DNA of 21,093 nt from IMG/VR virus record IMGVR_UViG_2579778952_000011, positions 1 to 21,093 of that record; one strand, written 5' to 3'. Both the position numbers and the translations under genes were made by a program. The DNA comes from a virus. Its lineage: Duplodnaviria > Heunggongvirae > Uroviricota > Caudoviricetes. This document shows positions 1 to 16,679 of this stretch, piece after piece. The notes below the pieces were generated by a model that was not told the origin of the DNA, made no database searches, and saw only the letters and a list, made by a program, of their open reading frames with translations. Numbering within the stretch: the stretch's first letter is position 1; the number at the start of each line of letters is the position of its first letter.

Positions 1-1005
1 TTAATCCCCCGTGGACACTGCGTGGACACTCACGCCACCTTTCAGCGGATTAAGGGCCACCGCATCCTGCAGGTAATCCGGTGCAAAATGTGCATATGCC
101 ATTGTTTGCTGAATGGTTGCGTGGCCAAGAATCTTCTGAAGCGCAATAATGTTTCCTCCGTTCATCACAAAATGGCTGGCGAACGTATGCCGCAGCACAT
201 GCGCAGCCTGGCCTTTTGGCAAATCGGGCTTAACCCTTTTCAGCGCCAGGCAGAATTCCCGGTACTTCACCTCAAACAAGTTGCCTGTTTCTCTGGTTCT
301 GATCGCCTCACAAACCGCCTGTGAAATTGGCACCGTTCTCTTCCGGCCATTTTTGGTTTCAAGAAACGTTACACGGTTATGAACTATCTGTTCACCACGA
401 AGCTTACAAGCTTCACTCCAGCGCGCCCCTGTGCTTAAACACAAAAGCGCAACACGCCAGTAGTCGCCCTCCAGTGTATCGAGCAATAGCGCCACTTCCT
501 TCTGTGACAGGAACGCCATTTCTCGTGGAGATACATAAAGAATAGAAATTCCCCTTACTGGATGTTCTGCATCCCAAAGACCTATTTTTTTCAGCACGGT
601 AAACATTCCGGATAACCGATTCATGTACCTGTTAGCAGATGACGGTTTCAATCCAGCAGCTATCTTTTGAGAACGCCACGCGATAATTTTCAGCTTATCA
701 AGATCCACAGCCTGCATATCAGCGCCAAGCTCATTGATTATGTTGCACAGTTGTTTTCGGTCTTCTTCCGCCTTACGCCTGTGTTGACCGTGATACATCC
801 ACCACAACTCAAGCAAATCATTTAGCGTTCGGCGATCACGGTAGCCCTGTATATATTCCCGCTTTTCAGCGTTCGCCATGATGTAGCGTTCAGTGGCCAC
901 CGCTACCGATTTTTTGTCAAATACCTTACGCACGCGCTTTCCCTTGCGTCCGTTCGGCCTGATGTCCAGCAAATAACGACCATCTTCGAGCTTCTTAATT
1001 GACAT
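1..1005 (-). CDS. int: Tyrosine-type phage integrase (P2 Int-like)
   Basis: The open frame runs 1..1020 with a TTG at 1018..1020. I place the start at the ATG at 1003..1005 (MSIKKLEDGRY...), which has a GGAGGG Shine-Dalgarno 7 nt upstream; that gives 334 aa. The C-terminal catalytic region has R...HxxRH...Y-like spacing (VLRHTFASH...TMAYAH). Stop TAA is at 3..1 on the minus strand. Confidence 0.9.
   Translation of the reverse strand: MSIKKLEDGRYLLDIRPNGRKGKRVRKVFDKKSVAVATERYIMANAEKREYIQGYRDRRTLNDLLELWWMYHGQHRRKAEEDRKQLCNIINELGADMQAVDLDKLKIIAWRSQKIAAGLKPSSANRYMNRLSGMFTVLKKIGLWDAEHPVRGISILYVSPREMAFLSQKEVALLLDTLEGDYWRVALLCLSTGARWSEACKLRGEQIVHNRVTFLETKNGRKRTVPISQAVCEAIRTRETGNLFEVKYREFCLALKRVKPDLPKGQAAHVLRHTFASHFVMNGGNIIALQKILGHATIQQTMAYAHFAPDYLQDAVALNPLKGGVSVHAVSTGD
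11..28 (+). repeat. Putative attL core (gtggacactgcgtggaca), lying inside the last codons of int
   Basis: Matches 19913..19930 (gtggtcactgcgtggaca) at 17 of 18 positions, in direct orientation, exactly at the two expected prophage ends. Confidence 0.6.
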
Positions 1006-1101
1006 TGCGAAGCCCTCCAATGAACCGCCCTACAATTTCTCCAGCCTCTTTCCAGCAATAATCAGACCAGACAAAGAGCAGGTCTAACCAGTTTTCTGGC
1101 C

Positions 1102-1440
1102 TTAGCGGGGTGATTTTTGGTTTGTTTCGGTTGAAACCTGATCGCCCTCCGAATCGAAGAAGCCATCAAGAGAGAGAGGCGGAGCAATCTGCCCCGTCGC
1201 AGCATTAGTTTGATTAAACATCACCCAATCCGAATACTTCCGAAAACGAGGATGATTCAAAATCAGGAGTAACGTTTCTCCAGGTATCATTCTTCCCAAT
1301 ATTTCATAATTTTTGAGATTGTATTGAGATACCCCTGTCACCTCCTCCATCTCTCTACGTGACAATCCCTCTGCCTCTCGAATCAGGCGAAGTTTTTCTC
1401 CAAGGCTTGATTTATGGATCATATGTGATCTAAACTCCAT
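1102..1440 (-). CDS. C: C-type immunity repressor (P2 C-like)
   Basis: A 106-112 aa ORF immediately upstream of int on the same strand, with a helix-turn-helix-like segment (LSRREMEEVTGVSQYNLKNYE) and a GQIAP motif that I recall from P2 C. The start may instead be the internal ATG at 1422. Confidence 0.7.
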   Translation of the reverse strand: MEFRSHMIHKSSLGEKLRLIREAEGLSRREMEEVTGVSQYNLKNYEILGRMIPGETLLLILNHPRFRKYSDWVMFNQTNAATGQIAPPLSLDGFFDSEGDQVSTETNQKSPR

Positions 1441-1470
1441 GCTATTGGGTTACATGTGATACAAAACATT

Positions 1471-1537
1471 CAAATAGCCAAAATAAGCCTATATAAGCCA
1501 TTTTGGGCCATTTGGACGAATTAAGGAGATTACCACA
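1471..1537. promoter_or_regulatory. Divergent early promoter/operator region between the repressor and the cox-like gene
   Basis: Intergenic and AT-rich, with 10-bp-phased direct repeats (ataagcc at 1483 and 1493; gccatttt/gccatttgg at 1497 and 1507) and an AAGGAG Shine-Dalgarno at 1523..1528 ahead of the ATG at 1538. Confidence 0.4.
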
Positions 1538-1735
1538 ATGAGCGAATCAGAGCTTGAGGGGTTCATTCAGGTAGCACCATATCCACTTGAAGCGGTGCCA
1601 TATCAACTATTTGCCAAGATGATTGGTCGCAAAGAATCAACCGTCAGAACCATGATTGACGCTGCAAAGTTACCAACGATTGACTTTGTAAAACCAGGTT
1701 CAGTGAAGACGCGAGCATCAGAAAACTGGGTATAA
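1538..1735 (+). CDS. cox: Cox-like excisionase/transcriptional regulator, probably C-terminally truncated
   Basis: A 65-aa ORF divergent from C with a good Shine-Dalgarno. The segment PYQLFAKMIGRKESTVRTMIDAAKLPTIDF resembles the Cox DNA-binding region as I recall it. P2 Cox is about 91 aa, and this ORF is followed directly by late gene L instead of B/A. Confidence 0.5.
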   Translation: MSESELEGFIQVAPYPLEAVPYQLFAKMIGRKESTVRTMIDAAKLPTIDFVKPGSVKTRASENWV

Positions 1736-1752
1736 CGACTGACCCCGTCAGC

Positions 1753-1823
1753 GGGCGGCGTGCGCGGTGTTCCGGTTTGACTCCGTGACCGTTTACACCG
1801 CGCACCCACCGCCCGATTTTTTT
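1753..1823 (+). terminator. GC-rich imperfect hairpin followed by a T7 run (intrinsic terminator-like)
   Basis: gtgcgcggtgt (1760..1770) pairs with acaccgcgcac (1795..1805), extended by gggcgg/ccgccc, then ttttttt at 1817..1823. The loop is long (about 24 nt), so strength is uncertain. Confidence 0.45.
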
Positions 1824-1838
1824 CAGGAGTGAACCCCC

Positions 1839-2333
1839 ATGAGTATGGTTGCCAGAACTGAACCAAGACCCGCAGAGGACGACATCACCGATACCGATGA
1901 TGGTGATACCCGTATTTCAGCGGGTGCATTCTGGCCGGATATTGTGCTGCGTGAGCTGCGTCTGGCGATACGACTGCCGGGCCGTGTGACCACCTCCCGC
2001 CTGCTGCATACCGCCACCGGGGCAGTGGCACACGTTACCCGCGAGCTGGAAGCGTGGCAGCAGGAACAGCAGGCGGCTGGCCATCTGACGCTGGCCGATG
2101 TTCCGGCACCCGTAATTAACGGAGAAAGCGTCAATCTCTGGCACTGGCGCAATGCTGTTTATACCGCCACACGCGCCCTGATTCTGGAGCGTTACCGCGA
2201 TGCGGACACAACGGACAAGGGCGACCGCAGGGCGGACGCACTGGATATACAGACATCGGATTTGTGGCGTGATGTGAGCTGGGCCATCTCTGACATTCTG
2301 TGCCGCCCGCGAATCTTTGCGGAGTTGTGCTGA
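1839..2333 (+). CDS. L: Head completion/stabilisation protein (P2 gpL-like)
   Basis: A 164-aa ORF immediately upstream of X whose stop overlaps the X start. Position and size match P2 L; identity is inferred from synteny more than from motif recall. Confidence 0.6.
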   Translation: MSMVARTEPRPAEDDITDTDDGDTRISAGAFWPDIVLRELRLAIRLPGRVTTSRLLHTATGAVAHVTRELEAWQQEQQAAGHLTLADVPAPVINGESVNLWHWRNAVYTATRALILERYRDADTTDKGDRRADALDIQTSDLWRDVSWAISDILCRPRIFAELC

Positions 2334-2533
2334 TGAAAGTAAAGGCACTGGAAGGCGACACCGTGGATTCGCTCTGTTTCCGGTACTACGGCACGACGCA
2401 GGGCGTCACCGAAAAGGTGCTGGATGCCAACCCCGGACTCTGCCAGCAGGTATTTCTGGACGCCGGGCAGGACGTGGAGATGCCAGAGCCGGAGAAGAAG
2501 AAACGAGAAATGATTCAGTTGTGGGGGGAGTAG
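2333..2533 (+). CDS. X: Tail protein X (small LysM-like tail component)
   Basis: A 66-aa ORF (MKVKALEGDTVDSLCFRYYG...) with a LysM-like fold signature, ATGA overlap with L, and the expected position before the holin. Confidence 0.8.
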   Translation: MKVKALEGDTVDSLCFRYYGTTQGVTEKVLDANPGLCQQVFLDAGQDVEMPEPEKKKREMIQLWGE

Positions 2534-2535
2534 CA

Positions 2536-2859
2536 GTGAGCACCATTCAAACAGGGATCACAGAGCAGGTTATTGCGTGGCTCTTTGACCACCTGCCAAC
2601 GGTGTATGCAGTAGGCGCGGCGGTCAGCATTTCCGCGCTGATGAGTCTTTATGACGGACGAACACTGGTTCAGACCGTAACGGGATCGCTGGCGTGCGGC
2701 GTTCTTGCCATGGCCGTGGCCGGGTCGTTGCGCTTCTTCGGGTTTCCTGAAGATGCCGTGACGTTTATCGGCGCATCAATCGGTTTTATGGGGGCAGAGA
2801 AAGCACGCGACAAGGTTATTGCGGCCTTTAATCGCAGGGTGAAGGAGAAGGACGAATGA
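2536..2859 (+). CDS. Y: Holin
   Basis: GTG start 6 nt after a GGGGGGAG Shine-Dalgarno; 107 aa with 2-3 hydrophobic helices and a charged C-terminus (KARDKVIAAFNRRVKEKDE). ATGA overlap with the endolysin start. Confidence 0.75.
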   Translation: MSTIQTGITEQVIAWLFDHLPTVYAVGAAVSISALMSLYDGRTLVQTVTGSLACGVLAMAVAGSLRFFGFPEDAVTFIGASIGFMGAEKARDKVIAAFNRRVKEKDE

Positions 2860-3248
2860 GCAACACATTTAAATTCAGCAGCCGGAGCGAAAAGAATTTG
2901 CAGGGCGTAAACCCTGATCTGGTGAAAGTGACCCGACGGGCACTGGAAATTTCGGAAGTGGATTTTGGTATCACCGAAGGGTTGCGCAGCCGTTACCGCC
3001 AGAAGCAACTGGTGGCCACAGATAAGAGCCAGACCATGAACAGCCGCCACCTTACGGGACATGCTGTGGATGTTGTGGCTTATATCGGCAGCCAGGTGTC
3101 ATGGGAATGGCCGCTGTACGAAAAAATCGCAGCAGCATTCAGACAGGCCAGCCGGGAACTGAATATTCCGGTGGAATGGGGCGGCGACTGGAAGACCCTG
3201 AAAGACGGACCGCATTTTCAGTTACCACACGGAGTCTATCCGGCATGA
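2856..3248 (+). CDS. Endolysin, peptidase M15-type (L-alanyl-D-glutamate peptidase-like)
   Basis: A 130-aa protein with the SRHLTGHAVDV and WGGDW...HFQ zinc-peptidase motif pattern. It sits between holin and spanins. It is not the P2 K lysozyme type. Confidence 0.8.
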   Translation: MSNTFKFSSRSEKNLQGVNPDLVKVTRRALEISEVDFGITEGLRSRYRQKQLVATDKSQTMNSRHLTGHAVDVVAYIGSQVSWEWPLYEKIAAAFRQASRELNIPVEWGGDWKTLKDGPHFQLPHGVYPA

Positions 3249-3652
3249 AGCTCTGGCCCACGCTGGGTGTTGCTTTCCTTCTGATTGCCGCATGGGGAAC
3301 ATCCATGCGTCTGTCGTGGTCGCTGGGCCGGGAGAACGCCAGAAACGAAGCGCAGGCCAGCGCCCTGAAAAGTACCGCCGACACCCTGAATATCATCAGC
3401 GCCGGGGTACAGGATATGCAGCAGGTGCTGGCGCAACTCCGCGTGGAAAATCAGCAACGCAATCAGGACGGAGAGGCCAGACGTGAACAGCTACGCAACG
3501 ATATTGCAAAAGATGAATGCGCCCACGCTTTGCCTGACGCTCGTTTTACTGACAGGCTGCGCAGGCACGCAGAACGCGCCACTGCCAGCGCCGTCAGTCC
3601 GGCTTATACCGCAGACGCTGACCATACCGGTAACGCCTCCCCCCTTCCCTGA
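3245..3652 (+). CDS. lysB: i-spanin (Rz/LysB-like)
   Basis: ATG at 3245 overlaps the endolysin stop. N-terminal TM helix (LWPTLGVAFLLIAAW) followed by a coiled-coil-like, charged periplasmic domain. Confidence 0.7.
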   Translation: MKLWPTLGVAFLLIAAWGTSMRLSWSLGRENARNEAQASALKSTADTLNIISAGVQDMQQVLAQLRVENQQRNQDGEARREQLRNDIAKDECAHALPDARFTDRLRRHAERATASAVSPAYTADADHTGNASPLP

Positions 3653-3803
3653 CACTCCCACATGGGGAAATCTCGGTATATGGGGCGACCGCCTTCTGGA
3701 TGCACTGGAAACCTGTAACGCGGATAAACGGGCCATTGAATTACTGGAACAGCGCAGGCTGCAACGACTGAACAACGAGGACAACAACCATGCTGAAAAC
3801 TGA
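3483..3803 (+). CDS. lysC: o-spanin lipoprotein (Rz1/LysC-like), overlapping lysB in another frame
   Basis: Signal peptide with lipobox LLTGC and a proline-rich mature region (PLPAPSVRLIPQTLTIPVTPPPFP). It starts inside lysB and extends beyond it. The start may be the ATG at 3513. Confidence 0.7.
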   Translation: MNSYATILQKMNAPTLCLTLVLLTGCAGTQNAPLPAPSVRLIPQTLTIPVTPPPFPDTPTWGNLGIWGDRLLDALETCNADKRAIELLEQRRLQRLNNEDNNHAEN

Positions 3804-4257
3804 TTCCCTGCGTGAAGCCATGACCCGTTCATGCCGATGGTGTCAGGCTAACCCGGAAAAATTCACCATTTTCGTGGAGAGCGGCAACATTGAAACGACC
3901 GGAGAAACGCCCTCGTTTGTTTACCGCTATCAGATGGTGATGTTTGTCATGGATTACGCCGGGGAGCTGGACGACCTCACGCTGCCGCTACTGGCGTGGT
4001 TATCCGAAAATCAGCCACAGTTGTTGCTCAATCCGGAGCGTAATCAGGACATCAAATTTTCCGCCGTTATCAATGACGATGACAGCGCCGATCTCCTGTT
4101 TACGCTCCCCTTGCGGGAACGCGTTCGCATCACGCGCAGCAGTCAGGGCACACCGCAGGCAGAACACCTGCCGGAGCCAAAACCCCGCCTGCCATCTTCC
4201 GCAGGCGACTGGTCGCATGTATTCCAGGATGTGACGTGGGGTGAAAGCGATGGATAA
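3790..4257 (+). CDS. R: Tail completion protein R
   Basis: A 155-aa ORF, the same size as P2 gpR, in the expected position with translational coupling to lysC and S. Confidence 0.75.
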   Translation: MLKTDSLREAMTRSCRWCQANPEKFTIFVESGNIETTGETPSFVYRYQMVMFVMDYAGELDDLTLPLLAWLSENQPQLLLNPERNQDIKFSAVINDDDSADLLFTLPLRERVRITRSSQGTPQAEHLPEPKPRLPSSAGDWSHVFQDVTWGESDG

Positions 4258-4885
4258 GGCATTCACCCGCGTGGATGAAACCTTTGAGGCCATTCGCGAC
4301 AGCCTGAATCAGCAGGCCATCAATAACATCGCCAGAAAGCTGGCACAGGATTTACGTCGCGCCCAGCAGGCGCGTATCCGGTCACAGAAAGCGCCGGACG
4401 GGACCGCGTGGACACCACGCAGACGCCGCGTAACCCGGATACAGGAGCGCATTCGTTTTATCTGGAATAACGAAGCACGCACGCTGAAAAACTGGCATCA
4501 CGACACGGGGAAATACGGGCGAACCATCACCGGGTGGGATGAGGATAAAAACAGCATCCGCACGTTTTACCGGGATGACATCGACCGCTTTCTGGAAATA
4601 CGCACCCGGCGCATCGACCAGGACAGCACCAGGCGCGTCCCCATGTTCGTAAAACTGCGCACCGCCCGCTACCTGAAAGCCCGTGCAGATGCTTCCGGTG
4701 TGACGGTGGGTTACAGCGGCGTGGCCGCACGTATTGCACGCGTTCATCAGTTCGGTGAGCGCGATCAGGTTGCGCCGGGCATTTTCACCGATTACCCGGT
4801 ACGTGAGCTGCTGGGTATCAGCCAGGCAGATGAGCGCCTGATTTATAACACGGTGCTGGGCCGGATTGCGGAGGCTGTACAGTGA
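4250..4885 (+). CDS. S: Tail completion / virion morphogenesis protein S
   Basis: ATG at 4250 overlaps the R stop (ATGGATAA). At 211 aa it is longer than P2 S as I recall it, suggesting an insertion or extension. Confidence 0.65.
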   Translation: MDKAFTRVDETFEAIRDSLNQQAINNIARKLAQDLRRAQQARIRSQKAPDGTAWTPRRRRVTRIQERIRFIWNNEARTLKNWHHDTGKYGRTITGWDEDKNSIRTFYRDDIDRFLEIRTRRIDQDSTRRVPMFVKLRTARYLKARADASGVTVGYSGVAARIARVHQFGERDQVAPGIFTDYPVRELLGISQADERLIYNTVLGRIAEAVQ

Positions 4886-5463
4886 GCGCAGAACTCATGC
4901 GACTGCTGAGCAACATCATCCGCACCGGGATCATCTCTGAAGTTGATGAGAAGTCCTGGTGCGTGCGCGTTCGCAGCGGCGAACTGGAAACAGGCTGGTT
5001 ACGCTGGAACACCACGCGCGCAGGAGCCTTCAACGTGTGGCTGCCGCCATCACCCGGCGAACAGGTGGTAATTGCCTGCATTGGCGGCAACCCGGAAACC
5101 GCCATGATAATTGGCAGCCTGTGGAGTGATGCCAATCCGGCACCCGGCAAAAGCCTGAAAGAAATCGTGATCAGCGCGCCGGACGGCGCGGTGTTCCGCT
5201 ACGACGCGGACGCAGGCGCACTGAGCGCCAGCGGCATGAAAACGGCCACTTTACAGGCATCCGTCAGCGTGAAACTGGATACGCCCGTCGTGGAATGCAC
5301 AAACCTTCTGAGAACAGCGACGCTTGACGTCACAAAAGGGGGAAAGATGAGCGGCAATATCACGCACAGCGGCGGCGATTTCACCTCAAACGGCATCACA
5401 GTGCATACGCATAAACACGGTGGCGTGAAAGGCGGCAGCGATTCGACAGGAGGCCCGCAGTGA
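4882..5463 (+). CDS. V: Baseplate central spike protein V
   Basis: GTG start overlapping the S stop; 193 aa. N-terminal OB-fold-like region and a Gly-rich C-terminus (HSGGDFTSNGITVHTHKHGG), typical of gpV/gp5-like spikes. Confidence 0.8.
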   Translation: MSAELMRLLSNIIRTGIISEVDEKSWCVRVRSGELETGWLRWNTTRAGAFNVWLPPSPGEQVVIACIGGNPETAMIIGSLWSDANPAPGKSLKEIVISAPDGAVFRYDADAGALSASGMKTATLQASVSVKLDTPVVECTNLLRTATLDVTKGGKMSGNITHSGGDFTSNGITVHTHKHGGVKGGSDSTGGPQ

Positions 5464-5810
5464 CAACCCGCTACACAGGAATGAATCCGGACGGGACGGG
5501 AAACCTGAACGATATGGAGCACCTGAAACAGTCAGTCAGGGACATCCTGACCACCCCGCTGGCAAGCCGGGTTATGCGACGGGAATATGGCAGCCTTGTG
5601 CCTGATTTGATTGACGAACCCATGAATAACACCACGCGTCTGCAATGCATGAGTGCTGCCGTGATTGCGCTGACACGATGGGAACCCCGCATTGCCCTGG
5701 ATGCCATCGACGTTGTCTGGAAAGCGGGAGGCCGCGCAGGGGTGATGCTGTCGGGCACTGTCATGCAGACCATGCAGAATGTTGAGTTAACCATCACGCT
5801 GAGGGAGTAA
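5460..5810 (+). CDS. W: Baseplate wedge protein W (gp25-like)
   Basis: A 116-aa ORF with start overlapping the V stop; its size and position match gpW. Confidence 0.8.
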   Translation: MTTRYTGMNPDGTGNLNDMEHLKQSVRDILTTPLASRVMRREYGSLVPDLIDEPMNNTTRLQCMSAAVIALTRWEPRIALDAIDVVWKAGGRAGVMLSGTVMQTMQNVELTITLRE

Positions 5811-5813
5811 ATC

Positions 5814-6710
5814 ATGCCTGCTGTTGACCTTTCCCAGTTACCGGAACCCGCCATCATCGCGGAGCCTGATTTTGAGGCAATTCTGGCTGACACAAAGGCC
5901 ATGATGATTGCGGCTTATCCCGCCGAACAGCGTGAAGCCGTTTCCGCCGCGCTGGAGCTGGAATCGGAACCCCTTAACGTTATCGCTCAAACCATGTCGT
6001 TTCGTGAAATGCTGTTACGCCAGCGGGTCAATGAGGGGGCTCGCGCCTGCATGTTAAGCCACAGCGCCGGGACAGACCTGGACAACCTCGCGGGCAATAT
6101 GAACACAAAGCGCCTGACCATCACTCCGGCAACGGATACCACCGACGCGGTGATGGAGAGTGACACCTCACTGAGACTGCGGGCGCAGCGGGCGTACGAC
6201 GGCCTGAGTGTTGCTGGCCCGTCAGGTGCATACGAGTATTTTGCCCGCAGCGCCAGCGGTCTGGTGCGTGATGCGCGGGCCATCAGCCCGTCTCCGGCAA
6301 ATGTGACGGTTTCCATCCTGTCCACTGAAGGCGACCGCACAGCAACGGAGGCGTTGCTTAATACCGTTCGCGCCGTTCTGAATGCAGAGGATACCCGTCC
6401 GGTGGCCGACCGCCTGACCGTACAGAGTGCCAGAATCGTGACATGGCGGCTGAATGCAAAACTGTACTTTTACCCCGGCCCGGAATCCGAACCTATTCTG
6501 GCTGCGGCGGAATCGTCGTTCAGGAAGTGGCTGGCTGAGCAGGGGCTTATCGGTCAGGACGTGGCGTTGTCCGCCATTGCTGCCGCACTGCATGTGCACG
6601 GTGTGCAACGCGTGGAGATAATCGAACCCACACAGAATATGGCCATCAGCGACATACAGGCGGCGCGCTGTGAGTCGTTCACCATCAGCGAAGGTGGGCG
6701 TAATGAGTAA
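5814..6710 (+). CDS. J: Baseplate assembly protein J
   Basis: A 298-aa ORF between W and I; its size matches P2 gpJ. Confidence 0.8.
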   Translation: MPAVDLSQLPEPAIIAEPDFEAILADTKAMMIAAYPAEQREAVSAALELESEPLNVIAQTMSFREMLLRQRVNEGARACMLSHSAGTDLDNLAGNMNTKRLTITPATDTTDAVMESDTSLRLRAQRAYDGLSVAGPSGAYEYFARSASGLVRDARAISPSPANVTVSILSTEGDRTATEALLNTVRAVLNAEDTRPVADRLTVQSARIVTWRLNAKLYFYPGPESEPILAAAESSFRKWLAEQGLIGQDVALSAIAAALHVHGVQRVEIIEPTQNMAISDIQAARCESFTISEGGRNE

Positions 6711-7233
6711 TTCGTTGTTACCCCCATCAGCCAGCAATTTCATGCGTTGTGCAGAAGCCGTCGGAACACGCATTACAGACATCCCGGTAGACCTCAACAC
6801 ACTGTGGTCCCCGGACACCTGCCCGGTGCACCTGCTGCCTTATCTCGCCTGGGCATTTTCCGTTGACCGCTGGGATCGCAACTGGCCGGAAGAGACAAAG
6901 CGACAGGTTATTCGTGATGCATGGCTGATACACCGACACAAAGGGACCATCAGCGCACTGCGCCGGGCCATTGAGCCGCTGGGATACCTCATTCGCGTGT
7001 CTGAGTGGTGGGAATTCGGCGGAGAACCGGGAACATTTACCGTTGAAGTCGGCACGCTGGACAGTGGCGTGACGGAGGAAATGTATCTGGAAATGGAGCG
7101 GTTGATTGCTGATGCCCGCCCGGTCAGCCGCCACATGACAGGGCTGAATATCATTCAGGAAATTCCGGGGGATATTTTCGCAGCGGCGGCAACTTATGAC
7201 GGTGAAGTTATCACCATTTATCCAGGCGATTAA
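6703..7233 (+). CDS. I: Baseplate protein I
   Basis: ATG at 6703 overlaps the J stop; 176 aa, the same as P2 gpI. Confidence 0.8.
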
Positions 7234-7235
7234 GC

Positions 7236-9632
7236 ATGAGTACCACAACACGAAAATTTAAAACCGTTATCACCGATACGGGTGCAAAAAAATTAGCTCA
7301 GGCAGCCGCGCCAGATGGTAAGCCTGTCCGCCTGACTCATATGGCCGTGGGCGACGGTGGCGGCACGTTGCCCACACCAGACAGTAAGCAGACCCGTCTG
7401 GTGCATGAGGTGTGGCGACATACTGTTAATCGCGTCATCCTGGACGCAACACATCAGAATCGCATTATTGCGGAGCTGGTTATTCCTCCAGAAACGGGCG
7501 GATTCTGGATCCGGGAAATTGGTGTGTTTGATGAGCACGGCGATTTAATCGCGGTGGGCAATACTGCCGAAAGTTACAAGCCAGCCGTTGCCGAAGGGTC
7601 CGGTCGTGCACAAACATTTCGCACCATTCTGACCGTATCCAGCACTGCCACTGTGGCGCTTACCGTGGATAACACCATGGTGATGGCCACAGTGGATTAC
7701 GTGGATAACAAACTGAAAGAGCATGAACAGTCACGACGTCACCCGGATGCCTCGCTGACCGCAAAAGGCTTTGTTCAACTCAGTAGCGCCACTAACAGCG
7801 TGTCTGAAACACAAGCTGCAACGCCGAAAGCAGTAAAGGCCGCGTATGACCTTGCTAACGGGAAATATACTGCGCAGGATGCCAGCACAACGCGAAAAGG
7901 CCTTGTCCAGCTCAGTAGCGCCACCAACAGCGATTCTGAAACGCTGGCGGCAACACCAAAGGCGGTAAAGGCAGCATATGACCTTGCTAACGGGAAATAT
8001 ACCGCACAGGACGCTACCACAGCGCGAAAAGGTCTTATCCAGCTCAGCAGTGCGACTAACAGCACTTCCGAGTCACTGGCGGCAACGCCAAAAGCCGTTA
8101 AGGCCGCGTATGAGCTGGCTAACGGGAAATACACCGCACAGGATGCAACGACAGCACAGAAAGGGATAGTTCAGCTTAGCAACGCGACCAACAGCACATC
8201 TGAAACGCTGGCGGCAACGCCAAAGGCGGTAAAGGCAGCATATGACCTTGCTAACGGGAAATATACCGCACAGGACGCTACCACAGCGCGAAAAGGTCTT
8301 ATCCAGCTCAGCAGTGCGACTAACAGCACTTCCGAGTCACTGGCGGCAACGCCAAAAGCCGTTAAGGCCGCGTATGAGCTGGCTAACGGGAAATACACCG
8401 CACAGGATGCAACGACAGCACAGAAAGGGATAGTTCAGCTTAGCAACGCGACCAACAGCACATCTGAAACGCTGGCGGCAACGCCAAAGGCGGTAAAGGC
8501 AGCATATGACCTTGCTAACGGGAAATATACCGCACAGGACGCTACCACAGCGCGAAAAGGTCTTGTCCAGCTCAGTAGTGCAACCAACAGCACGTCTGAA
8601 ACGCTTGCCGCGACCCCGAAAGCGGTTAAAGCTGCTAATGACAATGCAAACGGGCGTGTGCCCTCTGGACGTAAGGTTAATGGCAAACCACTGACCAATG
8701 ATGTCAATGTTACATCACAGGATATTTTTAACGGTCAGAGTATTAATATTGGTGCAAACCAGAATCTGGATAATTACAAAACGCCGGGGCTGTACCATCA
8801 ACCCCTGAATGCCTATACAAGTGCAGCGCTGAAATACCCAGAGAATCTTGCCGGTACACTGGTTGTGCTTAAAAATGCCGGGATAACACAGATTTACTAT
8901 GTGTATAACACATCCAGAAGCTATACCCGCAGCCAGTACTCAACGGGTGACTGGACAGCATGGACGCCGCAGGATTCATTTCCTGTAGGTGCGGCGATTC
9001 CGTGGCCTTCTGATTCAGTGCCTACAGGCTATGCCGTTATGCAGGGGCAGACTTTTGATAAAACAACCTATCCCCTGCTTGCAGCAGCTTATCCCTCTGG
9101 TGTACTCCCCGATATGCGTGGCTGGACAATCAAGGGCAAACCCGCCAGTGGTCGGGACGTATTGTCTCTGGAACAGGATGGCATTAAATCGCACACCCAC
9201 AGCGCCAGCGCATCCAATACGGATTTGGGTACGAAAACCACATCTTCGTTTGATTACGGTACTAAATCAACGAATAACACAGGTGCACATACCCACAATG
9301 TATCTGGTACTGCAAATAGTGCTGGCGCACATACTCATACCGTGCCATTAAGGAGACCAAACAGTGGCGGTATGAATTTCGACTGGCTGGATGGTGCATC
9401 AAGTGGCACGGTGGTAGGGAATGGAACTGTGCCTTCTTCTGGCGCACATACCCACTCAGTATCAGGCACCGCTACAAGTGCTGGGGCACATGCACACACT
9501 GTTGGTATTGGCGCTCATACGCACTCTGTTGCGATTGGTTCACATGGACATACCATCACCGTTAACGCTGCTGGTAACGCGGAAAACACCGTTAAAAACA
9601 TCGCATTTAATTATATTGTGAGGCTTGCATAA
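7236..9632 (+). CDS. H: Tail fibre protein H with expanded fibre repeats and a His-rich distal tip
   Basis: 798 aa. Conserved P2 H-like N-terminus, seven tandem 44-aa repeats (KG[FLI][26 protein letters not shown]), a tail-collar-like segment ([28 protein letters not shown]) and repeated GAHTH motifs. Confidence 0.9.
7764..8687 (+). repeat. Seven tandem 132-bp coding repeats inside H, including an exact 264-bp tandem duplication
   Basis: Sequence 7957..8300 is identical to 8221..8564 (344 bp at a 264-bp offset). Successive repeat units begin at 7764, 7896, 8028, 8160, 8292, 8424 and 8556. Confidence 0.9.
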
Positions 9633-10249
9633 TGGCATTCAGAATGAGTGAACAATCACGCACTGTAAAAATTTATAACCTGCTGGCCGGAACTAATGAG
9701 TTTATTGGTGAAGGTGACGCATATATTCCACCTCATACAGGGCTGCCAGCTAATTCTACAGATATCGCCCCACCGGAAATTCCTGCTGGCTTTGTGGCAG
9801 TTTTTAACAGTGAAAATGAATCGTGGAATATTGTTGAAGACCATCGTGGTAAAACGGTCTATGACGTGGCATCGGGGGACGCGTTGTTTATTTCTGAACC
9901 CGGACCGCTACCAGAGAATGTCACCTGGTTGTCGCCAGCAGGGGAATATCAGAAGTGGGACGGCGTATCCTGGGTGAAGGATGAGGAAGCAGAAAAACTG
10001 TTTCGGATACGGGAAGCGGAAGAGAAAAAGGCAAGGTTGATCCAGGAGGCAACAGATAACATCGCAATCCTGCAGGATGCAGTTAATCTTGAAATAGCAA
10101 CAAACGAGGAAAATTCACAACTGGATTCCTGGAGAAAATACAGAGTATTAGTGAGTAGAATTGACACCAGTACAGCTCCGGATATCGTATGGCCAGAGCT
10201 GATGAATCAGGGTTATGTGCGGGAGGACGAGCAGATAACTTCAGACTGA
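9632..10249 (+). CDS. G: Tail fibre assembly chaperone (Tfa/gpG-like)
   Basis: TAATG overlap with the H stop; 205 aa; position and size typical of Tfa. AT-rich relative to the tail core genes. Confidence 0.8.
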
Positions 10250-10776
10250 AATTTAGTGATGAATGTTGAATCATCAGGAATATCATGCAATACCAATGCA
10301 TGAGCACCTATTGTGACATTGTTTCCTATACGCACTTTGCCACCAAGAATGGTGGCATTACAACCAATGGTCACATTATGTCCTATAACAATATCCATAT
10401 CATTAAAATCACCACGTAGCCCAATAGTTACCCCCGGTTTTATTGAACAATTTTCACCGATTGTTACTTTGTGACCGATAACAACACTGTTGAGATAAGA
10501 AATATCAAAACCTTTCCCTATATTTACAGTTAAAGGGACTGTTACATTATATTTATCAAGAATGAAACGTTCTATTTTCCCCGCAATCTTCCGACAGTAT
10601 CCGCCTTTATCAAAAAGGTATTTGGCTATGCGCCACCAAAATAAATAACGAAGTCTTCTATGTTTTATTGCGCGAACAATTGCCTTTCGCCAGGAGAAAG
10701 GACGCTCGCTACCGATTACTTCATAGTGAATACAGTCTTTAAGTTCATTAATATTCATATCTCTATTATTCAGCAT
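10213..10776 (-). CDS. Hexapeptide-repeat (left-handed beta-helix) acyl/acetyltransferase, CysE/WcaB-like; moron
   Basis: Clear [LIV]-G-x4 hexapeptide repeats ([20 protein letters not shown]...[35 protein letters not shown]) after an N-terminal helical region. Sits in an AT-rich island. Its 3' end overlaps the G stop convergently by 37 bp. Confidence 0.8.
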
Positions 10777-10939: not shown

Positions 10940-10946
10940 CATTAAA

Positions 10947-11441
10947 TCAGAACAGCCCTTTAACTGAACTGGCCGCGCTGTTAAGGGATGATGTCACTTT
11001 ATCTTTGAAGCCGGACAGAATATCGCTGAACGATGAGGATTGCAGGCGCTCCCGCAAATCCTCATCACAGCGTTCAAGGGTCAGTGAAAATTCTATCTTT
11101 TTCGCCTTACCGTAGCGATCAAACTCGGAACGGGTCGTATTCGTTTCGGTCAGGACATACATGCCGTAAATCTGCCCGACGCCATCAATAAGAGGCCAGG
11201 GGCGTCCTGTATACGCCTGCGTGGTCAGCAGCGACAGCGACACTTCGCCACCTGTAATTTCAGGATAAAGCACACCAGAAAGAACGATGCGATCATCACC
11301 TGCACCGATATACTGCCAGCTTGCTGAACGGTTAACGCGTTCATTTTTCACATGCCGCCAGCTTTTGTTTTGCTGTAACTGCTGATGCGGCAGCGTGCGC
11401 AGCTCAAAAACAAACATGCCGTAGATCATCATCATGGCCAT
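10947..11441 (-). CDS. U: Tail protein U
   Basis: A roughly 162-aa ORF directly downstream of T on the minus strand. GAGGAG Shine-Dalgarno; the start is probably the second ATG at 11435. Confidence 0.75.
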   Translation of the reverse strand: MAMMMIYGMFVFELRTLPHQQLQQNKSWRHVKNERVNRSASWQYIGAGDDRIVLSGVLYPEITGGEVSLSLLTTQAYTGRPWPLIDGVGQIYGMYVLTETNTTRSEFDRYGKAKKIEFSLTLERCDEDLRERLQSSSFSDILSGFKDKVTSSLNSAASSVKGLF

Positions 11442-11447
11442 GACTCC

Positions 11448-14291
11448 TCAATCTTTATCGTAAAAACTGCCACGCCCGGCATGGGCACGCCGTTCCATTT
11501 CTGCCCTGACCATTTCACCGACCAGTTTCGCCAGTTCGCGGGGATTCTGCGTAACAACGTTATGCAGATGAACATGAATTTCACCACCAAATCCGGAGGC
11601 AACAGGCTCCCGGTTACGGGAAGTTGCAGGAACTGATGCCACTGGCGATCGTATGGCCTCCGCCACCGGGTGAGAGCTGGCCGCAACAACAGGGACCAGC
11701 GCCGGAGGCAGCGGAGCCGGAACCACGGGGGTGATATTAATTGCGGGGGCAGGCTTACTGACCTGTGTAATCTTCCGCTCCTGCCACTCCCCACGAACAG
11801 CAAGTGCGCGGGGCAGGTTCTTAAAGACAATATCGCCGGGGCCAATGCGTTTTTTCGTCTCATCAACCAGCTTACCTGTGTTATCAGCAATTTTGCTGAG
11901 TCTGCGTAGCGTCCCGGTATTGCTGTCTGTGAGCGGTTTGTTGTCTTTGGGTTTATCACCTCCGGTGCCATTGCCATTTTCCACAGGCTTCGGCGGATTG
12001 ATTTTCGCCAGGTCCCCCTGAAGTAAGGCTACCTTGTCCTGAAGAATGGCCGCACGCTGTGCGTCTTCGATTTTCTTGCGCGCCCTTTCCGCTTCATCCG
12101 GAAGGACGCCAAGTTTTTCAAGTATCCACGCCAGCGTATCCAGTAGCATTTTTGCAGGTGTCAGAACAAGTTGTAACGCACCGCCAAGAACGTTACCGAA
12201 TATCTCGCCAGCACTGGTACATTTATCCAGCGTTTCCTTGCTGGACTCCATCGGTGACAGTAGCGATTTAAACCAGTTAAACACCTGGCTGATCCCGCTT
12301 CCGATTGCGTCAAAAACAGGACCAAACCGTTCAAAAGTTTCGCGCAACGGGGTCAGCCTTTCCATAATCCCGCTGAACACCCCGGCAAAAAATGCCCTGA
12401 TGGGATCCCAGTATTTCCAGATAAGAACGGCAGCTCCGGCAAGCGCAGCCACGATAAGACCAACCGGACTGAACAGCGCCCCGATAGCACCTCCCAGCAA
12501 AGAAACGGAACCCGTCACCATTCCCCATAGTGCTGGCAGGAGCCTGACAGCATTCATTGATCCGGTCAGGAGGGAAAAACCAAGACGCAGTTTTGCCAGC
12601 GGGCCAGCAAGCACACCAAGAGCAAGCGACAACGAGCCTACGGTTGCAGTCACTGCCAGCAGCGCACCGCCTGCAATCAGTAGCTGGCGCGTCAGTACAG
12701 GATGGGCCTGCGCCAGTACCGTCACCTTTGAGACCACCCGTGTTAGCCACTGCGTGACAGAACGCAGCGGACCGTCAACCAGATCACTGATGCGAATACG
12801 AAGACCTTCCCATGCGCTGTCGAGATTTTTCAGGTCGCCATCAAGGTTGTCGGCCATAACCTTTGCCGTGCGTTCAGCCTCACCGCGTGCGCCCTCAAGT
12901 TCTTTTCTCAGTTTGGGTAAGGAACCGTCACCCGCCGCATCAACGAGTGCCATAAACGATGTGAAAGCCTCTTCCCCGGCGATATCCTTAAAGAAGGATA
13001 CCCGGTCAACTTCCCCGTATTTGCGGGTAGCTTTATAAAGGTCAGCCAGCAGATCTTCCATCGGGCGCATTTTGCCCCCGGCATCCGAAACGGACACGCC
13101 CAGCTCTTTCAGAGCTTCTGCCGCCGCCTTTGGCGGTGATGCCAGACGAGCCAGGCTGGCACGCATTGCCGTCCCGGCATCACTCCCTCTGATGCCCATA
13201 TTCGCCAGCACGCCCGCCATCGCTGCGGTCTGCTCCAGCGATATTCCCAGCTTACCCGCCACCGGACCTGCATATTTCATGGTTTCGCCCAGTGCGCGAA
13301 GGTCAGTGTTGGTACGGGTAAACGCTGCGGTGAGTGTGTCACCGACCCGGTCCATCTGGTCAGCAGAAAGGCCGAACTGCGTCAGGATATTTGAGCCAAT
13401 ATCTGCCGTCTCGCCGAGATCCATACCGCCAGCCGTTGCCATGCTCAGCACGCCGGGAAGCGCAGCCTGAATGGCCTGCGGAGTGAAGCCAGCCATTGCA
13501 AGAAATGCCTGTCCACTGGCGGCATCGCCTGCGGTGAACTGCGTTTCAGAGCCAAGTTTTAACGCCTGCTCACGCAGCGCCTTAAACTGCGGGCTGTTCT
13601 GGTCGATTCGCGTCAGTGCCTGAACGCGGGACATCTCTTTGCCGAACCCGATCGCAGGCTGCAAAAAACGCCCGGCAGCATAGCCGCCCGCCGCTGCCGC
13701 ACCAATTGCCAGTGCACCACCTGTTTTCAGTTTTCCCGCTGTTTCCTGCGCGCGCGAATACCGCTCACGCGCCCGCGTTACACGCGCAAGCGCCTGCCGT
13801 TCGCGTTCAAGCTGATTGTTGTACTGTTCGGTGCGTCTGATGGCCTGCTGGATGGTGTTATCGCTGCCTGTCAGGGAAATGCCGTGGCGTTTCAGCTCTC
13901 CGCCAAGCTCCCGCATTTTCTGAATTTCCCGCGTGCGCGATTCATTCAGGCGTTCAAGCCGGGTGCTTAACTGCTGCATCAGCTTTTGTTGTTTTTCGCT
14001 GAGCACTGTACCCGTGCGTTGTAACTGATTAAGGGCGTTAAGCTGGCGTCGTGCTTTCACGATACCCGCATCCGCTTTACTGACAGCGTCGCGGGCGCGC
14101 TCAAATGAACGCGCCTGACGCTCGAGATTTTTGATCGCCCCCTGCGTTCGCTGGATGGAGTCACCAAACTGCCCCATCAGGCGGCGGGCGTTTTCGGCAG
14201 GCTGGGTCAGCCTGTCAACGGCGCTGAAAGCGACCCGGATATCAAGAGTCTTCATTGTCTGCATTCCCGCTGCGAAGTGCCGCCCGCTCAC
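11448..14291 (-). CDS. T: Tail tape measure protein T
   Basis: 947 aa, with an N-terminal coiled-coil-rich region, central hydrophobic/Gly-Ala-rich segments and a long helical region; lies downstream of E/E'. Confidence 0.9.
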   Translation of the reverse strand: MSGRHFAAGMQTMKTLDIRVAFSAVDRLTQPAENARRLMGQFGDSIQRTQGAIKNLERQARSFERARDAVSKADAGIVKARRQLNALNQLQRTGTVLSEKQQKLMQQLSTRLERLNESRTREIQKMRELGGELKRHGISLTGSDNTIQQAIRRTEQYNNQLERERQALARVTRARERYSRAQETAGKLKTGGALAIGAAAAGGYAAGRFLQPAIGFGKEMSRVQALTRIDQNSPQFKALREQALKLGSETQFTAGDAASGQAFLAMAGFTPQAIQAALPGVLSMATAGGMDLGETADIGSNILTQFGLSADQMDRVGDTLTAAFTRTNTDLRALGETMKYAGPVAGKLGISLEQTAAMAGVLANMGIRGSDAGTAMRASLARLASPPKAAAEALKELGVSVSDAGGKMRPMEDLLADLYKATRKYGEVDRVSFFKDIAGEEAFTSFMALVDAAGDGSLPKLRKELEGARGEAERTAKVMADNLDGDLKNLDSAWEGLRIRISDLVDGPLRSVTQWLTRVVSKVTVLAQAHPVLTRQLLIAGGALLAVTATVGSLSLALGVLAGPLAKLRLGFSLLTGSMNAVRLLPALWGMVTGSVSLLGGAIGALFSPVGLIVAALAGAAVLIWKYWDPIRAFFAGVFSGIMERLTPLRETFERFGPVFDAIGSGISQVFNWFKSLLSPMESSKETLDKCTSAGEIFGNVLGGALQLVLTPAKMLLDTLAWILEKLGVLPDEAERARKKIEDAQRAAILQDKVALLQGDLAKINPPKPVENGNGTGGDKPKDNKPLTDSNTGTLRRLSKIADNTGKLVDETKKRIGPGDIVFKNLPRALAVRGEWQERKITQVSKPAPAINITPVVPAPLPPALVPVVAASSHPVAEAIRSPVASVPATSRNREPVASGFGGEIHVHLHNVVTQNPRELAKLVGEMVRAEMERRAHAGRGSFYDKD

Positions 14292-14771
14292 GCCAGCTAA
14301 CCACTTCGCCGGGCGTCATCATGAAGATTTCGGCGGGCGACCAGTTAAAAATAACGGCAATATCTGCCACAAAGTCTTCTATGTGCTCAAAGCACACAAC
14401 CGTGATCAGGCTTCCGTCGCCTGTTCGTTCTTCCCGCCAGAGTCCGCACCGCTCAAAAAATTTACGGCAACCACACATAACTGAATAAAGTCACGGGATG
14501 CCATTTTTTTGATCGTCACTTCATCCAGTCGCGGTGATGTCACTCGTGACAGCAGCGTAAACATGGATTCCGCTTTCAGATTCAGCACATCAGACAGCGA
14601 CAAATCTCGCAGAGATCCAGCCTGCTCAATAGCCCCGGTGATCTCCACATACGTGATTTTTTCGCCGCCTCGCTCAATTGGTTGGGTAAGTTTTACGCCA
14701 CGCTCACTGGTTTCTTTCACAGTGTCAGCAACTACCGTGTTTTCGGTATCGATGTTTTTCGTCTCTTTCAT
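14242..14771 (-). CDS. E': E+E' tail chaperone produced by a programmed -1 frameshift
   Basis: The -1 frame is open from the slippery site T.TTT.TTG (minus strand; plus-strand coordinates 14454..14460) to 14242, overlapping the T start. This is the same arrangement as P2 E/E' and lambda G/GT. Confidence 0.55.
14406..14771 (-). CDS. E: Tail assembly chaperone E
   Basis: A 121-aa ORF between FII and T that ends just after a TTTTTTG slippery heptamer. Confidence 0.75.
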   Translation of the reverse strand: MKETKNIDTENTVVADTVKETSERGVKLTQPIERGGEKITYVEITGAIEQAGSLRDLSLSDVLNLKAESMFTLLSRVTSPRLDEVTIKKMASRDFIQLCVVAVNFLSGADSGGKNEQATEA

Positions 14772-14825
14772 CAGGAAACTCCTTTCAGTCAGAGGCGACG
14801 CACTGCGCCGCCTGCATATTACTTA

Positions 14826-15338
14826 TCAGCCAAGCCCAAGCGCGGAACGGATGCGATCGGGCACAATGTCCTTGCCGTCCTTCCGGTAAATGAAGTTCAG
14901 CAGGTCAATCTCCCACAACGGACGATCGTTAACACTCAGCTTGTAGTAGGTGTTTTTAATGGCGTAAGTGTGTGATGTGGCTTCGCCCTGTTTGGCTTCC
15001 CCCATATCAATTTCCGTCACGCGTCCGCGCATTTCGACTTCATACAGGTCGCTTTCTGCATCGGTGTAGTATTCACCCGCAAAACGCAGTAGCGTGCCGT
15101 CAATCGTGCCGCCATACTTAAGGAACAGCTCACGAACTGCGCCCCCCATGACAAAGCTCGCATCAAGCGCGGAGTCGTCCAGACCGAGATCAATACTTAC
15201 CGCACCCATCATGCCACCACCCCGGTAGCTGTCGGTTTTGCGCGTCAGTTTAGGCAGGGTGACGGACGTCACCTTACCCACTTCGTTTTCACCATCCACA
15301 AACAGCGTAAAAAAGCGAAGATGTTTTGGTACAGCCAT
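14826..15338 (-). CDS. FII: Tail tube protein FII
   Basis: A 170-aa ORF directly after the sheath gene with an overlapping stop/start; its size matches P2 FII. Confidence 0.85.
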   Translation of the reverse strand: MAVPKHLRFFTLFVDGENEVGKVTSVTLPKLTRKTDSYRGGGMMGAVSIDLGLDDSALDASFVMGGAVRELFLKYGGTIDGTLLRFAGEYYTDAESDLYEVEMRGRVTEIDMGEAKQGEATSHTYAIKNTYYKLSVNDRPLWEIDLLNFIYRKDGKDIVPDRIRSALGLG

Positions 15339-16522
15339 CAGGCACCTCCCAGCACCGCAAATGCGGGACCAAAGAATTCATCAGTAAACGACTGGTAAAG
15401 CTCCATGTCTTCCAGCGGAGGAACGGGCGTATATTTGTAGCGAATACGCACACGCCCCTGACGTAAATCCGTGGTGCTGTTATCCACCACGTCATACCAG
15501 CACGACGCCCCAATCAGTTTCCCGGCAGTAACCAGTGAATCCAGTTTTGCCCTGATGGCACTGATAACATCCTTCACGTTCGCAGGCGTCAGTGGACTAT
15601 CGATGGTTTCAAACTGCGCTTCCGCAATTGAATCAGCCAGCACCTGTGCGGTTCGGGTATACACCTCAAAGATGTAGGCGTTCGTTTCCGGTGTGCGGTT
15701 GCCCCAGAAGCGGAACCCGTTGCGACGAATAATGGTCGTGATTTCTTTGTTGTTGAGGCTGTTGGCATCACTGTCTTCGGCCTGCAACGACCAGAACACA
15801 TGCCTGGACATCCCCAGCACATTTTTAACCGGAACGTTGGACAGCGATTTGTGCCAGCCCTGCTCATGGTCAATGTACGCACGAAGGCCGCACGCATAGG
15901 CAGGCGCGGGGAACGTTTCGTTTTTGCCACTTTTCGGGTTGTAGGCGATGAAGTCCGGCCATAAGAGCATCACCTCACGTTCGTTGAATTTCTGGCGGTA
16001 GGTAATCGCCTCAGCCATCGTGTTACAGCCGTGACATGAGGCATACACAAACGCGCGCAGTTTACCCGCAATCACGCACAGGGATTTTGTTACCGCCTCC
16101 GTGTCCAGCTCCGGCGCGGCCAGAATACGCGGACGGTATCCGATGCTTTCATCCTGCTCTGCAACAAGCAGCGCATACATCCCCGTATAGCTGCCGTCAG
16201 ATTCAGAACCACCGATAACCAGTTGATCCTGCGTTTTTCCGTCTTCTTCTTTGTGTTCAGCCACGCGAACGACGATCACCTTTGTACTCACCTGGTCTGC
16301 GATGGCCTTAAGCGCACGATAAAGCGTCCCCGTTGTCCCGCATTTTCCCAGCACGTCATTGACGCGGGTCAGCAGTGTGGGCTTGTTCAGCGGGAACAGC
16401 TTCGCGTCCGCATCATCCGCCGTTGCCACGATACCGATAACGCTGGAATCAACATCGTTAATCGCTGTTACCAGGTCGGTATTTTCCGTAACACGGGCAC
16501 CATGAAAACGAGTTTCACTCAT
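15338..16522 (-). CDS. FI: Contractile tail sheath protein FI
   Basis: 394 aa (P2 FI is about 396), with AAGGGG Shine-Dalgarno 8 nt before the ATG; first gene of the minus-strand tail block. Confidence 0.9.
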   Translation of the reverse strand: MSETRFHGARVTENTDLVTAINDVDSSVIGIVATADDADAKLFPLNKPTLLTRVNDVLGKCGTTGTLYRALKAIADQVSTKVIVVRVAEHKEEDGKTQDQLVIGGSESDGSYTGMYALLVAEQDESIGYRPRILAAPELDTEAVTKSLCVIAGKLRAFVYASCHGCNTMAEAITYRQKFNEREVMLLWPDFIAYNPKSGKNETFPAPAYACGLRAYIDHEQGWHKSLSNVPVKNVLGMSRHVFWSLQAEDSDANSLNNKEITTIIRRNGFRFWGNRTPETNAYIFEVYTRTAQVLADSIAEAQFETIDSPLTPANVKDVISAIRAKLDSLVTAGKLIGASCWYDVVDNSTTDLRQGRVRIRYKYTPVPPLEDMELYQSFTDEFFGPAFAVLGGA

Positions 16523-16679
16523 AGCTTCAGCCCCTTGTATCCGTTAAATGATTCGGCAACAATCATCACCCACCACGCGCGTAATCTCACCCCTGCGCCG
16601 TTCTCTCGCCACGGCGACAACAAAAAGCAGTAACCCCCTCCGCACGCACATGCGACCATGCCGCACAGGGAGGGAGCAG

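Follow-up and report, generated by a model that had tools for sequence, protein, structure and literature searches.

Very probably, a single deletion of 15.45 kb in a prophage of the phiSM/P88 type produced the headless, grounded remnant carried by the window, as we call the whole stretch of 21,093 nucleotides analysed here, and the breakpoint of this deletion within cox is a recurrent one. The junction of the window on its own is ordinary prophage decay; it is the recurrence of its breakpoint in cox that is the part worth following up. Judged by similarity and gene order, the window is a P2-family prophage of the phiSM/P88 type (Xuanwuvirus, Peduoviridae) at the pdxB site of E. coli. An E. 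coli assembly, GCA_000687125.1, is 100% identical to it over 11.7 kb, the int-C-cox region of Shae_phiSM matches window positions 1-1734 at 99.1% identity, and P88 matches positions 1729-8104 and 10942-18464 at about 97% nucleotide identity, with Xuanwuvirus phages (P88, P884B11, PhiR44_2 and others) at 97-98% over 1729-5000. Gene order, including the inverted FI-U block, is common to the window, Citrobacter phage Shae_phiSM (OR565851) and Escherichia phage P88 (NC_026014), but the window is without the 15.45 kb that runs from the 3' end of cox through M. The features of the window are, from left to right:

1-1020, minus strand: integrase (tyrosine recombinase), from its open reading frame and from Pfam Int_N and Phage_integrase on the identical gene of locus L006; its stop codon forms the first bases of the window
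1102-1440, minus strand: C-type immunity repressor (HTH), with HTH_19, HTH_31 and HTH_3 below curated cut-offs and annotated as C protein in phiSM; its start codon is uncertain, public assemblies calling 106 aa
1441-1537, no strand: C-cox intergenic region with putative Pe and Pc, from synteny with the annotated P2 record
1538-1735, plus strand: truncated cox (Cox', 65 of 95 aa), the winged-HTH part, ending in beta3, from Pfam Phage_Cox, phiSM and alignment to P2 Cox
1732-1735, no strand: deletion junction, also the recurrent left breakpoint GGGTATA^, from the three-way comparison and ten junction classes
1736-1838, plus strand: native M-L intergenic spacer, kept whole (103 nt), collinear with the M-L spacer of P88, phiSM and 14 more intact phage records
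1753-1823, plus strand: spacer hairpin and T7 run of terminator-like form, from folding and from conservation in P2, 186 and PSP3
1839-2333, plus strand: L, head-completion protein, full length (PF05926 Phage_GPL, E 8e-45; 98.2% aa identity to P88 L over 164/164 residues)
2333-10249, plus strand: X, holin, M15 endolysin, LysB/LysC, R, S, V, W, J, I, H and G, with lysis, tail-completion, baseplate and fibre roles, from comparison with P88 and the Pfam content of the identical L006 locus
10947-16522, minus strand: U, T, E', E, FII and FI (tail tube, sheath, tape measure), full length, from comparison with P88
16600-16621, plus strand: retained late-promoter-type motif GTTCT-N12-ACAACAAAAG in the FI/D intergenic region, from a motif search; its function is putative
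16680-17789, plus strand: D, from comparison with P88
17832-18092, plus strand: ogr late activator (PF04606 Ogr_Delta, E 5e-14)
19977-19996, no strand: attR core TTTTCATCAACAAGGATTTT (20 bp), matching an attL core about 200 nt to the left of the window start
20098-21093, plus strand: host gene flk, outside the prophage and to the right of attR, from Pfam Flk_N on the identical L008 product

The attP of phiSM is 17 bp long and its site is the 5' end of pdxB (PMC6456863). The 20-bp core that is duplicated at attL and attR of the present element includes this published sequence, and public contigs with an identical Cox' have pdxB on the left flank and flk on the right. Repeats of GTGGACA flank the core, at 11-17 and 22-28 in the 3' end of int and at 19924-19930, approximately 50 nt to the left of attR; by comparison with the organisation of P2 attP, these are probably integrase arm-type binding sites. 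The window also differs from its relatives in some of its accessory content. P88 and phiSM carry a DNA invertase with an invertible alternative fibre segment, whereas the window has in that place, between G and U, a gene for a hexapeptide-repeat acyltransferase (10213-10776, minus strand; PF00132, E 1e-12), and its endolysin is of the M15 type of P88 rather than the GH108 type of phiSM. Between ogr and attR there is a small cargo region (18283-19848) with a hok-like toxin gene (18283-18420), a gene for a zinc-ribbon membrane protein (18556-18933) and a VasI-like gene that is frameshifted near 19190, its intact copy in L008 encoding 297 aa. A search of the whole window against Rfam gave no family matches.

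A three-way comparison of the window, phiSM cox and the end of M maps the join to 1734/1735. Intact cox reads GGGTATA^TCTG and the end of M reads GCGGTTA^ACGA, while the window reads GGGTATA^ACGA, with 2 nt (TA) of microhomology at the join. The first-pass annotation had described a deletion junction that joined cox directly to L. Its positions for the 65-codon reading frame, for the hairpin with its run of seven T and for L all hold, and the deletion itself is confirmed, the left arm being phiSM cox and the right arm the M-L spacer of intact phages; the partner of cox at the join is, however, the stop codon of M, and the native M-L spacer is wholly kept. The TAA at 1733-1735 is at once the stop codon of Cox' and the original stop codon of M, and Cox' therefore ends without foreign residues. 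The right-side match starts at 1729-1733 in 16 intact phage records, between M and L, and in Xuanwuvirus phages the match to the window from 1729 onward begins six bases before the end of M. The alignment to intact relatives that the annotation had asked for has thus fixed both breakpoints to the nucleotide.

Relative to phiSM the loss amounts to 15,451 bp. By the annotation of phiSM and P88, this removes cox codons 66-95, all of the early genes, A, parMR, Q, P, O, N and M, with the Q-M block annotated as portal, large terminase, scaffold, capsid and small terminase M, and A as the replication endonuclease. Comparison with the P88 proteins found no match for A, Q, P, O, N, M or the invertase anywhere in the window, and together with the missing 15,451 bp this identifies the element as a defective derivative and not a phage. 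Junction-spanning sequence was found in none of 50,697 phage records (all 16 matching ones begin at window position 1733) and in none of 5,426 complete E. coli genomes, and a 21-mer across the junction has no match in GTDB representative genomes or IMG/VR. Two observations would speak against a deletion, namely a full-length Cox of 65 aa in intact relatives or an intact phage with cox adjacent to L. The intact Cox of phiSM has 95 aa, cox runs uninterrupted across the breakpoint in every one of the 290 complete E. coli genomes with this cox (truncated in 0/290), and the phage and genome collections just named gave no example of the adjacency, so that the deletion reading is supported. The same junction is present in the independent assemblies L006, L010 and L005, all carriers being short-read or draft assemblies. 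In L005, a metagenome copy, there is a second, private deletion that runs from codon 23 of L through lysB, corresponding to 1908-3631 of the window, which indicates that the remnant is still decaying.

These data are consistent with one illegitimate deletion, at 2 nt of microhomology, in which a phiSM/P88-like prophage would have lost the 15.45 kb between cox codon 66 and the M stop. Such an event would have left behind attL, int, C, Pe/Pc and cox', followed by the M-L spacer, L, X, the lysis genes, all tail genes, ogr, the small cargo and attR. It would have taken the oligomerisation half of Cox, the early genes, the nickase A with the replication origin, parMR, cos, the portal, both terminase subunits, the scaffold, the capsid and the divergent late promoter between P and O. 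The resulting element would be unable to self-excise, to replicate or to build heads, and would be likely to keep its immunity. It would as such be a 'grounded' prophage, a concept that has been set out previously (PMC6379469).

The part of Cox that remains is well defined. Cox' matches the Phage_Cox profile (PF10743) with E 2.4e-10, residues 12-65 corresponding to positions 4-57 only of the 87 in the profile. In an alignment to P2 Cox (4LHF), residue n of the phiSM protein corresponds to P2 residue n-8, and the terminus of Cox' is the equivalent of V57 in strand beta3; helices alpha3 and alpha4 and the equivalents of W81 and W84 are absent. It has been shown in the P2 Cox structure that alpha3 and alpha4 mediate oligomerisation, and that the W81A, W84A and R73A/R78A variants fail to complement a cox-defective prophage (PMC3936717). 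Ending where it does, Cox' is thus without the oligomerisation helices, and self-excision by Cox' should be lost, in agreement with the earlier suggestion that truncation of Cox impairs excision. As int and the att core are intact, a co-resident phage of the same type could in principle provide Cox in trans, and Cox supplied in this way might still allow excision.

The late genes to the right of the junction, from L through D and with ogr, are full length. L, X, holin, M15 endolysin, LysB, R, S, V, W, J and I show 97-100% aa identity to P88, as do U, T, E, E', FII, FI and D, while the C-termini of H and G diverge from P88. The tail-fibre gene H (7236-9632, 798 aa) has an internal duplication, with a second, 79%-identical copy of the segment that matches P88 H 171-300. 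In P88, intergenic copies of the motif GTTCT-N12-ACAACAAAAG are found only in the P/O and FI/D spacers (14214, 33253). The P/O copy is deleted in the window together with the replication and packaging genes, in agreement with the earlier claim that a single junction removed replication, packaging and the promoter of the head operon. A crude motif search found no copy in 2333-10249 and none before V, which overlaps S. Because the P/O motif is gone and none precedes V, L through G (1839-10249) have probably all lost their late promoter. The loss of a native late promoter had been proposed for L, X, the lysis genes, R and S; the motif data agree with that proposal for these genes, and the loss probably extends further, through G. 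The absence of a motif before V suggests that in the P88-type genus one long late operon runs from O to G, whereas P2 has a separate V promoter of a kind not detected in P88-type phages. Transcription of L-G in the remnant would be possible only as read-through from a repressed Pe across the spacer hairpin. The positions of Pe and Pc within 1441-1537 are putative, because they derive from synteny and a simple consensus scan of this interval returned no sigma-70 sites.

The hairpin in the M-L spacer is a long G+C-rich stem-loop at 1753-1814, followed 2 nt past the stem by a T7 run at 1817-1823, then by the Shine-Dalgarno sequence AGGAGT at 1825-1830 and the ATG of L at 1839. It has the form of an intrinsic terminator, a G+C-rich stem-loop and then a U run, and was missed by a simple terminator scanner because the loop limit of the scanner is 8. 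The spacer RNA has a minimum free energy of -49.1 kcal/mol (z -5.6), and none of 200 shuffles was equally stable. The hairpin was not made by the deletion, being native to the M-L spacer of every intact relative and also of P2, 186 and PSP3. Its outer stem, GGGCGG/CCGCCC, is invariant across the P88 type, P2, 186 and PSP3, and four inner pairs of the stem differ in both partners between phages of the P88 type and those of the P2/186 type, although this covariation is thin evidence because it comes from two lineages. The T run counts seven T in the P88 type and four in P2, and 186 and PSP3 have none. In the annotated P2 record, O N M L X Y K lysA lysB R S make up a single operon that is transcribed from one start site, and no terminator is given between M and L; this confirms the P2 operon structure on which the first-pass annotation relied. 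Late transcription must therefore cross the hairpin in intact phages, where it would act as an attenuator at most rather than as a strong terminator. Efficient termination at the M-L hairpin thus appears unlikely, given its position inside the O-to-S operon and the lack of a U run in 186 and PSP3.

The left end of the deletion, GGGTATA^ (cox codons W-V-Y), is shared by ten or more distinct deletions, which fall on two alleles of cox; the tally is drawn from draft or metagenome assemblies and is a count, not a frequency. An identical 65-aa Cox' is encoded on 21 public contigs, in each case at pdxB and joined to one of five right-hand partners, and a second 65-aa Cox' allele adds one further partner. 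A search with the intact 95-aa Cox, in which fusions of any length were accepted, returned four fusion proteins that break after Y66, which is four of the seven deletion-type fusions recovered in this way. The only other deletion-type left breakpoints in this cox are at 1672, 1678 and +23 nt, in addition to one inversion junction. The loci with the breakpoint are L005-L022, L028 and L029 (phiSM type), with L034 and L035 also listed, and the ten classes are given here with the left arm and the start of the partner, the location of the partner and the loci in which they are found:

Class a, GGGTATA^ACGACTG: M stop codon; the window, L005, L006 and L010
Class b, GGGTATA^ATCGAACC: inside J; L007 and L029
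Class c, GGGTATA^AGGTCGATAAGG: after ogr, the whole phage gone; L008, L011 and L013
Class d, GGGTATA^ACAGGATAA: 1.8 kb downstream; L009
Class e, GGGTATA^AAGAATGG: inside A; L012
Class f, GGGTATA^TGGCAACGCGG: end of H, on 23 contigs; L015-L017
Class g, GGGTATA^CGCAGCCCC: inside T; L018 and L019
Class h, GGGTATA^CAGCCTGAG: early region; L020
Class i, GGGTATA^CTGGTGCTTTATGG: fibre-like sequence; L021 and L022
Class j, GGGTATA^ACCCTGCC: upstream of O; L028

The left arms represent two cox alleles that are approximately 11% apart, with class b on both, and the same left arm is joined to different partners in classes a and e and likewise in classes g and j. Homology at the phiSM-type joins is 0-3 nt, and on their deleted side the partners resemble GG.TA(A) only loosely. 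Complete E. coli genomes contain none of the classes a, b, c and f. Five Logan contigs (L014, L030-L033) stop at the window equivalent of 1732-1734; a contig end of this kind is a branch in the assembly graph, and two continuations after GGGTATA must therefore coexist, in mixed strains or in subpopulations. Four fusion proteins of P2-type cox have their break after V57 or Y58, within the homologous sequence GGGTATACC, and P2-type cox has further clumps of breakpoints at A52, N63 and E70. Two of the P2-type fusions were checked in DNA at yegR/yegS and are a cox-D join with 3 nt and a cox-J join with 4 nt of homology. Locus L034 (GCA_900449075.1) is a P2-type remnant, int-C-cox'::D'-ogr, between yegR and yegQ, in which the deletion starts at GGGTATA, and we take it to resemble an intermediate towards the yegZ-ogrK remnant of K-12. 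A 14-nt inverted repeat, CAGAAAACTGGKTA, at 1085-1099 (minus strand) and 1719-1732 (plus strand), encloses C, Pe/Pc and the 5' portion of cox and is conserved across the two allele groups, with a chance occurrence roughly estimated at 0.06. One 592-nt metagenome contig, L023, has an inversion junction exactly at CAGAAAACTGGKTA, which would put int downstream of Pe-cox'.

From this distribution we infer that the left breakpoint is non-random and that GGGTATA^ in cox is a recurrent deletion start point. We also raise the possibility, to which we give slightly less than even weight, that GGGTATA^ is a genuinely site-specific point of fragility, for example a nick or a site of replication arrest, and that deletions set out from it again and again in one direction, from cox towards the early and late genes. 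If so, each event would kill excision and the lytic functions while immunity was kept, a built-in route to grounding and to erosion from one end, and the cox-M junction of the window would be one product (class a) of this process. Deletions anchored at nicks or at arrested forks are similar to the ten classes in having one fixed end, one-sided variable ends and 0-4 nt of homology, and have reportedly been described at the origin nicks of M13 and pC194 (Michel and Ehrlich 1986) and at Ter-arrested forks (Bierne et al. 1997). In contrast to those systems, comparison of sites identified no nickase or arrest site at cox.

Several known sources of a fixed end were considered and set aside. A pseudo-origin for the A protein does not fit, as the nick site of P2 (GCGCCTCG^GAGTCC, annotated at 29892) and its counterpart in P88 and phiSM are unlike the cox site. 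The sites of the phage DNA invertase, TTCCTGTAAACCGAGGTATTCGATAA, have a partial likeness to CAGAAAACTGGGTAT, and crossover there would fall 5-6 nt to the left of the observed joins. Action of the integrase at a secondary att site is likewise rejected, the att core being unrelated to the cox site and the cores of the P2 and phiSM types being different while the cox breakpoint is common to both. As to a DNA hairpin or cruciform at this position, folding of both strands of phiSM and P2 cox gave z of about 0. All junction classes lack IS elements, the right-hand partners being the phage's own DNA. Inspection by eye found no Chi sites or common motif to the right of the joins, phiSM has no second copy of the cox-site 17-mer within 3 mismatches, and a degenerate pattern of the hot spot returned only chance matches in unrelated organisms from metagenome and genome collections. 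Literature searches for the cox breakpoint or for P2-like remnants at pdxB gave nothing relevant beyond the description of phiSM.

The clustering at GGGTATA^ could instead reflect sampling or selection rather than a mutational hot spot, with deletions that keep C and destroy Cox and the lytic functions being favoured and with searches that were centred on this codon. We regard this as unlikely. Six of the ten classes derive from an exact 65-aa look-up that demands a stop at codon 66; however, the length-free search still places the majority of deletion-type fusions at this codon. Selection for grounded prophages has been proposed (PMC6379469), and among the 290 complete genomes there is no truncation at this point, but selection at a single codon of the Cox' protein is hard to argue because cox is repressed in the lysogen. 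The additional clumps in P2-type cox also speak for sampling or selection, yet GGGTATACC, at another chromosomal site, is also used repeatedly, breakpoints on the two diverged alleles agree within 4 nt, and the class b junction pair occurs on both.

The remaining alternatives concern the window junction itself and are less probable. That it is an assembly chimera or a minority molecule, in a strain that holds an intact prophage, is suggested by the restriction of all carriers to short-read assemblies and by the Logan contigs that stop exactly at 1732-1734 where two continuations coexist, and is very improbable: the join shares only 2 nt, too few for a de Bruijn graph to produce a false join, independent data sets have this junction in the interior of contigs of 27 kb and 295 kb whose host flanks agree, and one carrier has a further private deletion. 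Still harder to credit is that a 65-aa Cox adjacent to L belongs to the original gene order of a small, separate element, for instance a satellite, which would account for an open reading frame with a clean end at a stop codon and draws no other support, whereas that stop codon is the stop of M, the sequence to its right is the M-L spacer of intact phages, Cox' covers only part of the Pfam model and intact relatives have the longer Cox. A domesticated R-type tailocin, in which selection has kept the deletion and tail and lysis proteins are made on derepression to kill competitors, is improbable to a lesser degree. Full-length genes for tail, baseplate, fibre and lysis functions are present along with a full-length ogr, the head, packaging and replication genes are absent, and Pe could after the deletion drive L-G on derepression. 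However, the head-completion gene L, int, C and cox' are kept, which would be expected after an accident and not in a module that has been trimmed, L-G have probably lost their late promoter, the junction is rare (0/5,426 complete genomes) and the carrier L005 is already without L through lysB. Sister deletions from the same breakpoint take part or all of the tail genes, and there is therefore no sign of selection for the tail module.

A single deletion in a phiSM/P88-like prophage thus remains our preferred explanation, and it illustrates how one such event can suffice to reduce a live P2-like phage to a remnant that is immune, non-excising and headless but has its tail and lysis genes intact. 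If one motif in cox does start many deletions, grounding in the P2 family would be partly a directed mutational process and not random decay, and the cox site would be a handle on how illegitimate deletions start in E. coli chromosomes. MG1655(phiSM) lysogens exist (PMC6456863), making the hot-spot idea directly testable. The remnant is similar to R-type pyocins and other contractile tailocins in combining a P2-type tail set and a lysis cassette without genes for capsid, packaging or replication. Unlike tailocins, it has no dedicated regulator or promoter, its native late promoter being deleted, and it retains L, int, C and cox'; it is also a rare element that is decaying in one carrier, and is known from its genes alone. 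It also resembles the grounded or cryptic P2-family prophages of E. coli, which are alike in a non-excising, non-replicating state that results from internal deletion, and of which we take ogrK-yegZ of K-12, next to yegR/yegS, to be an example. In contrast to other cryptic P2-family remnants, the one in the window is young, with remaining late genes that are intact and 97-100% identical to those of a living phage.
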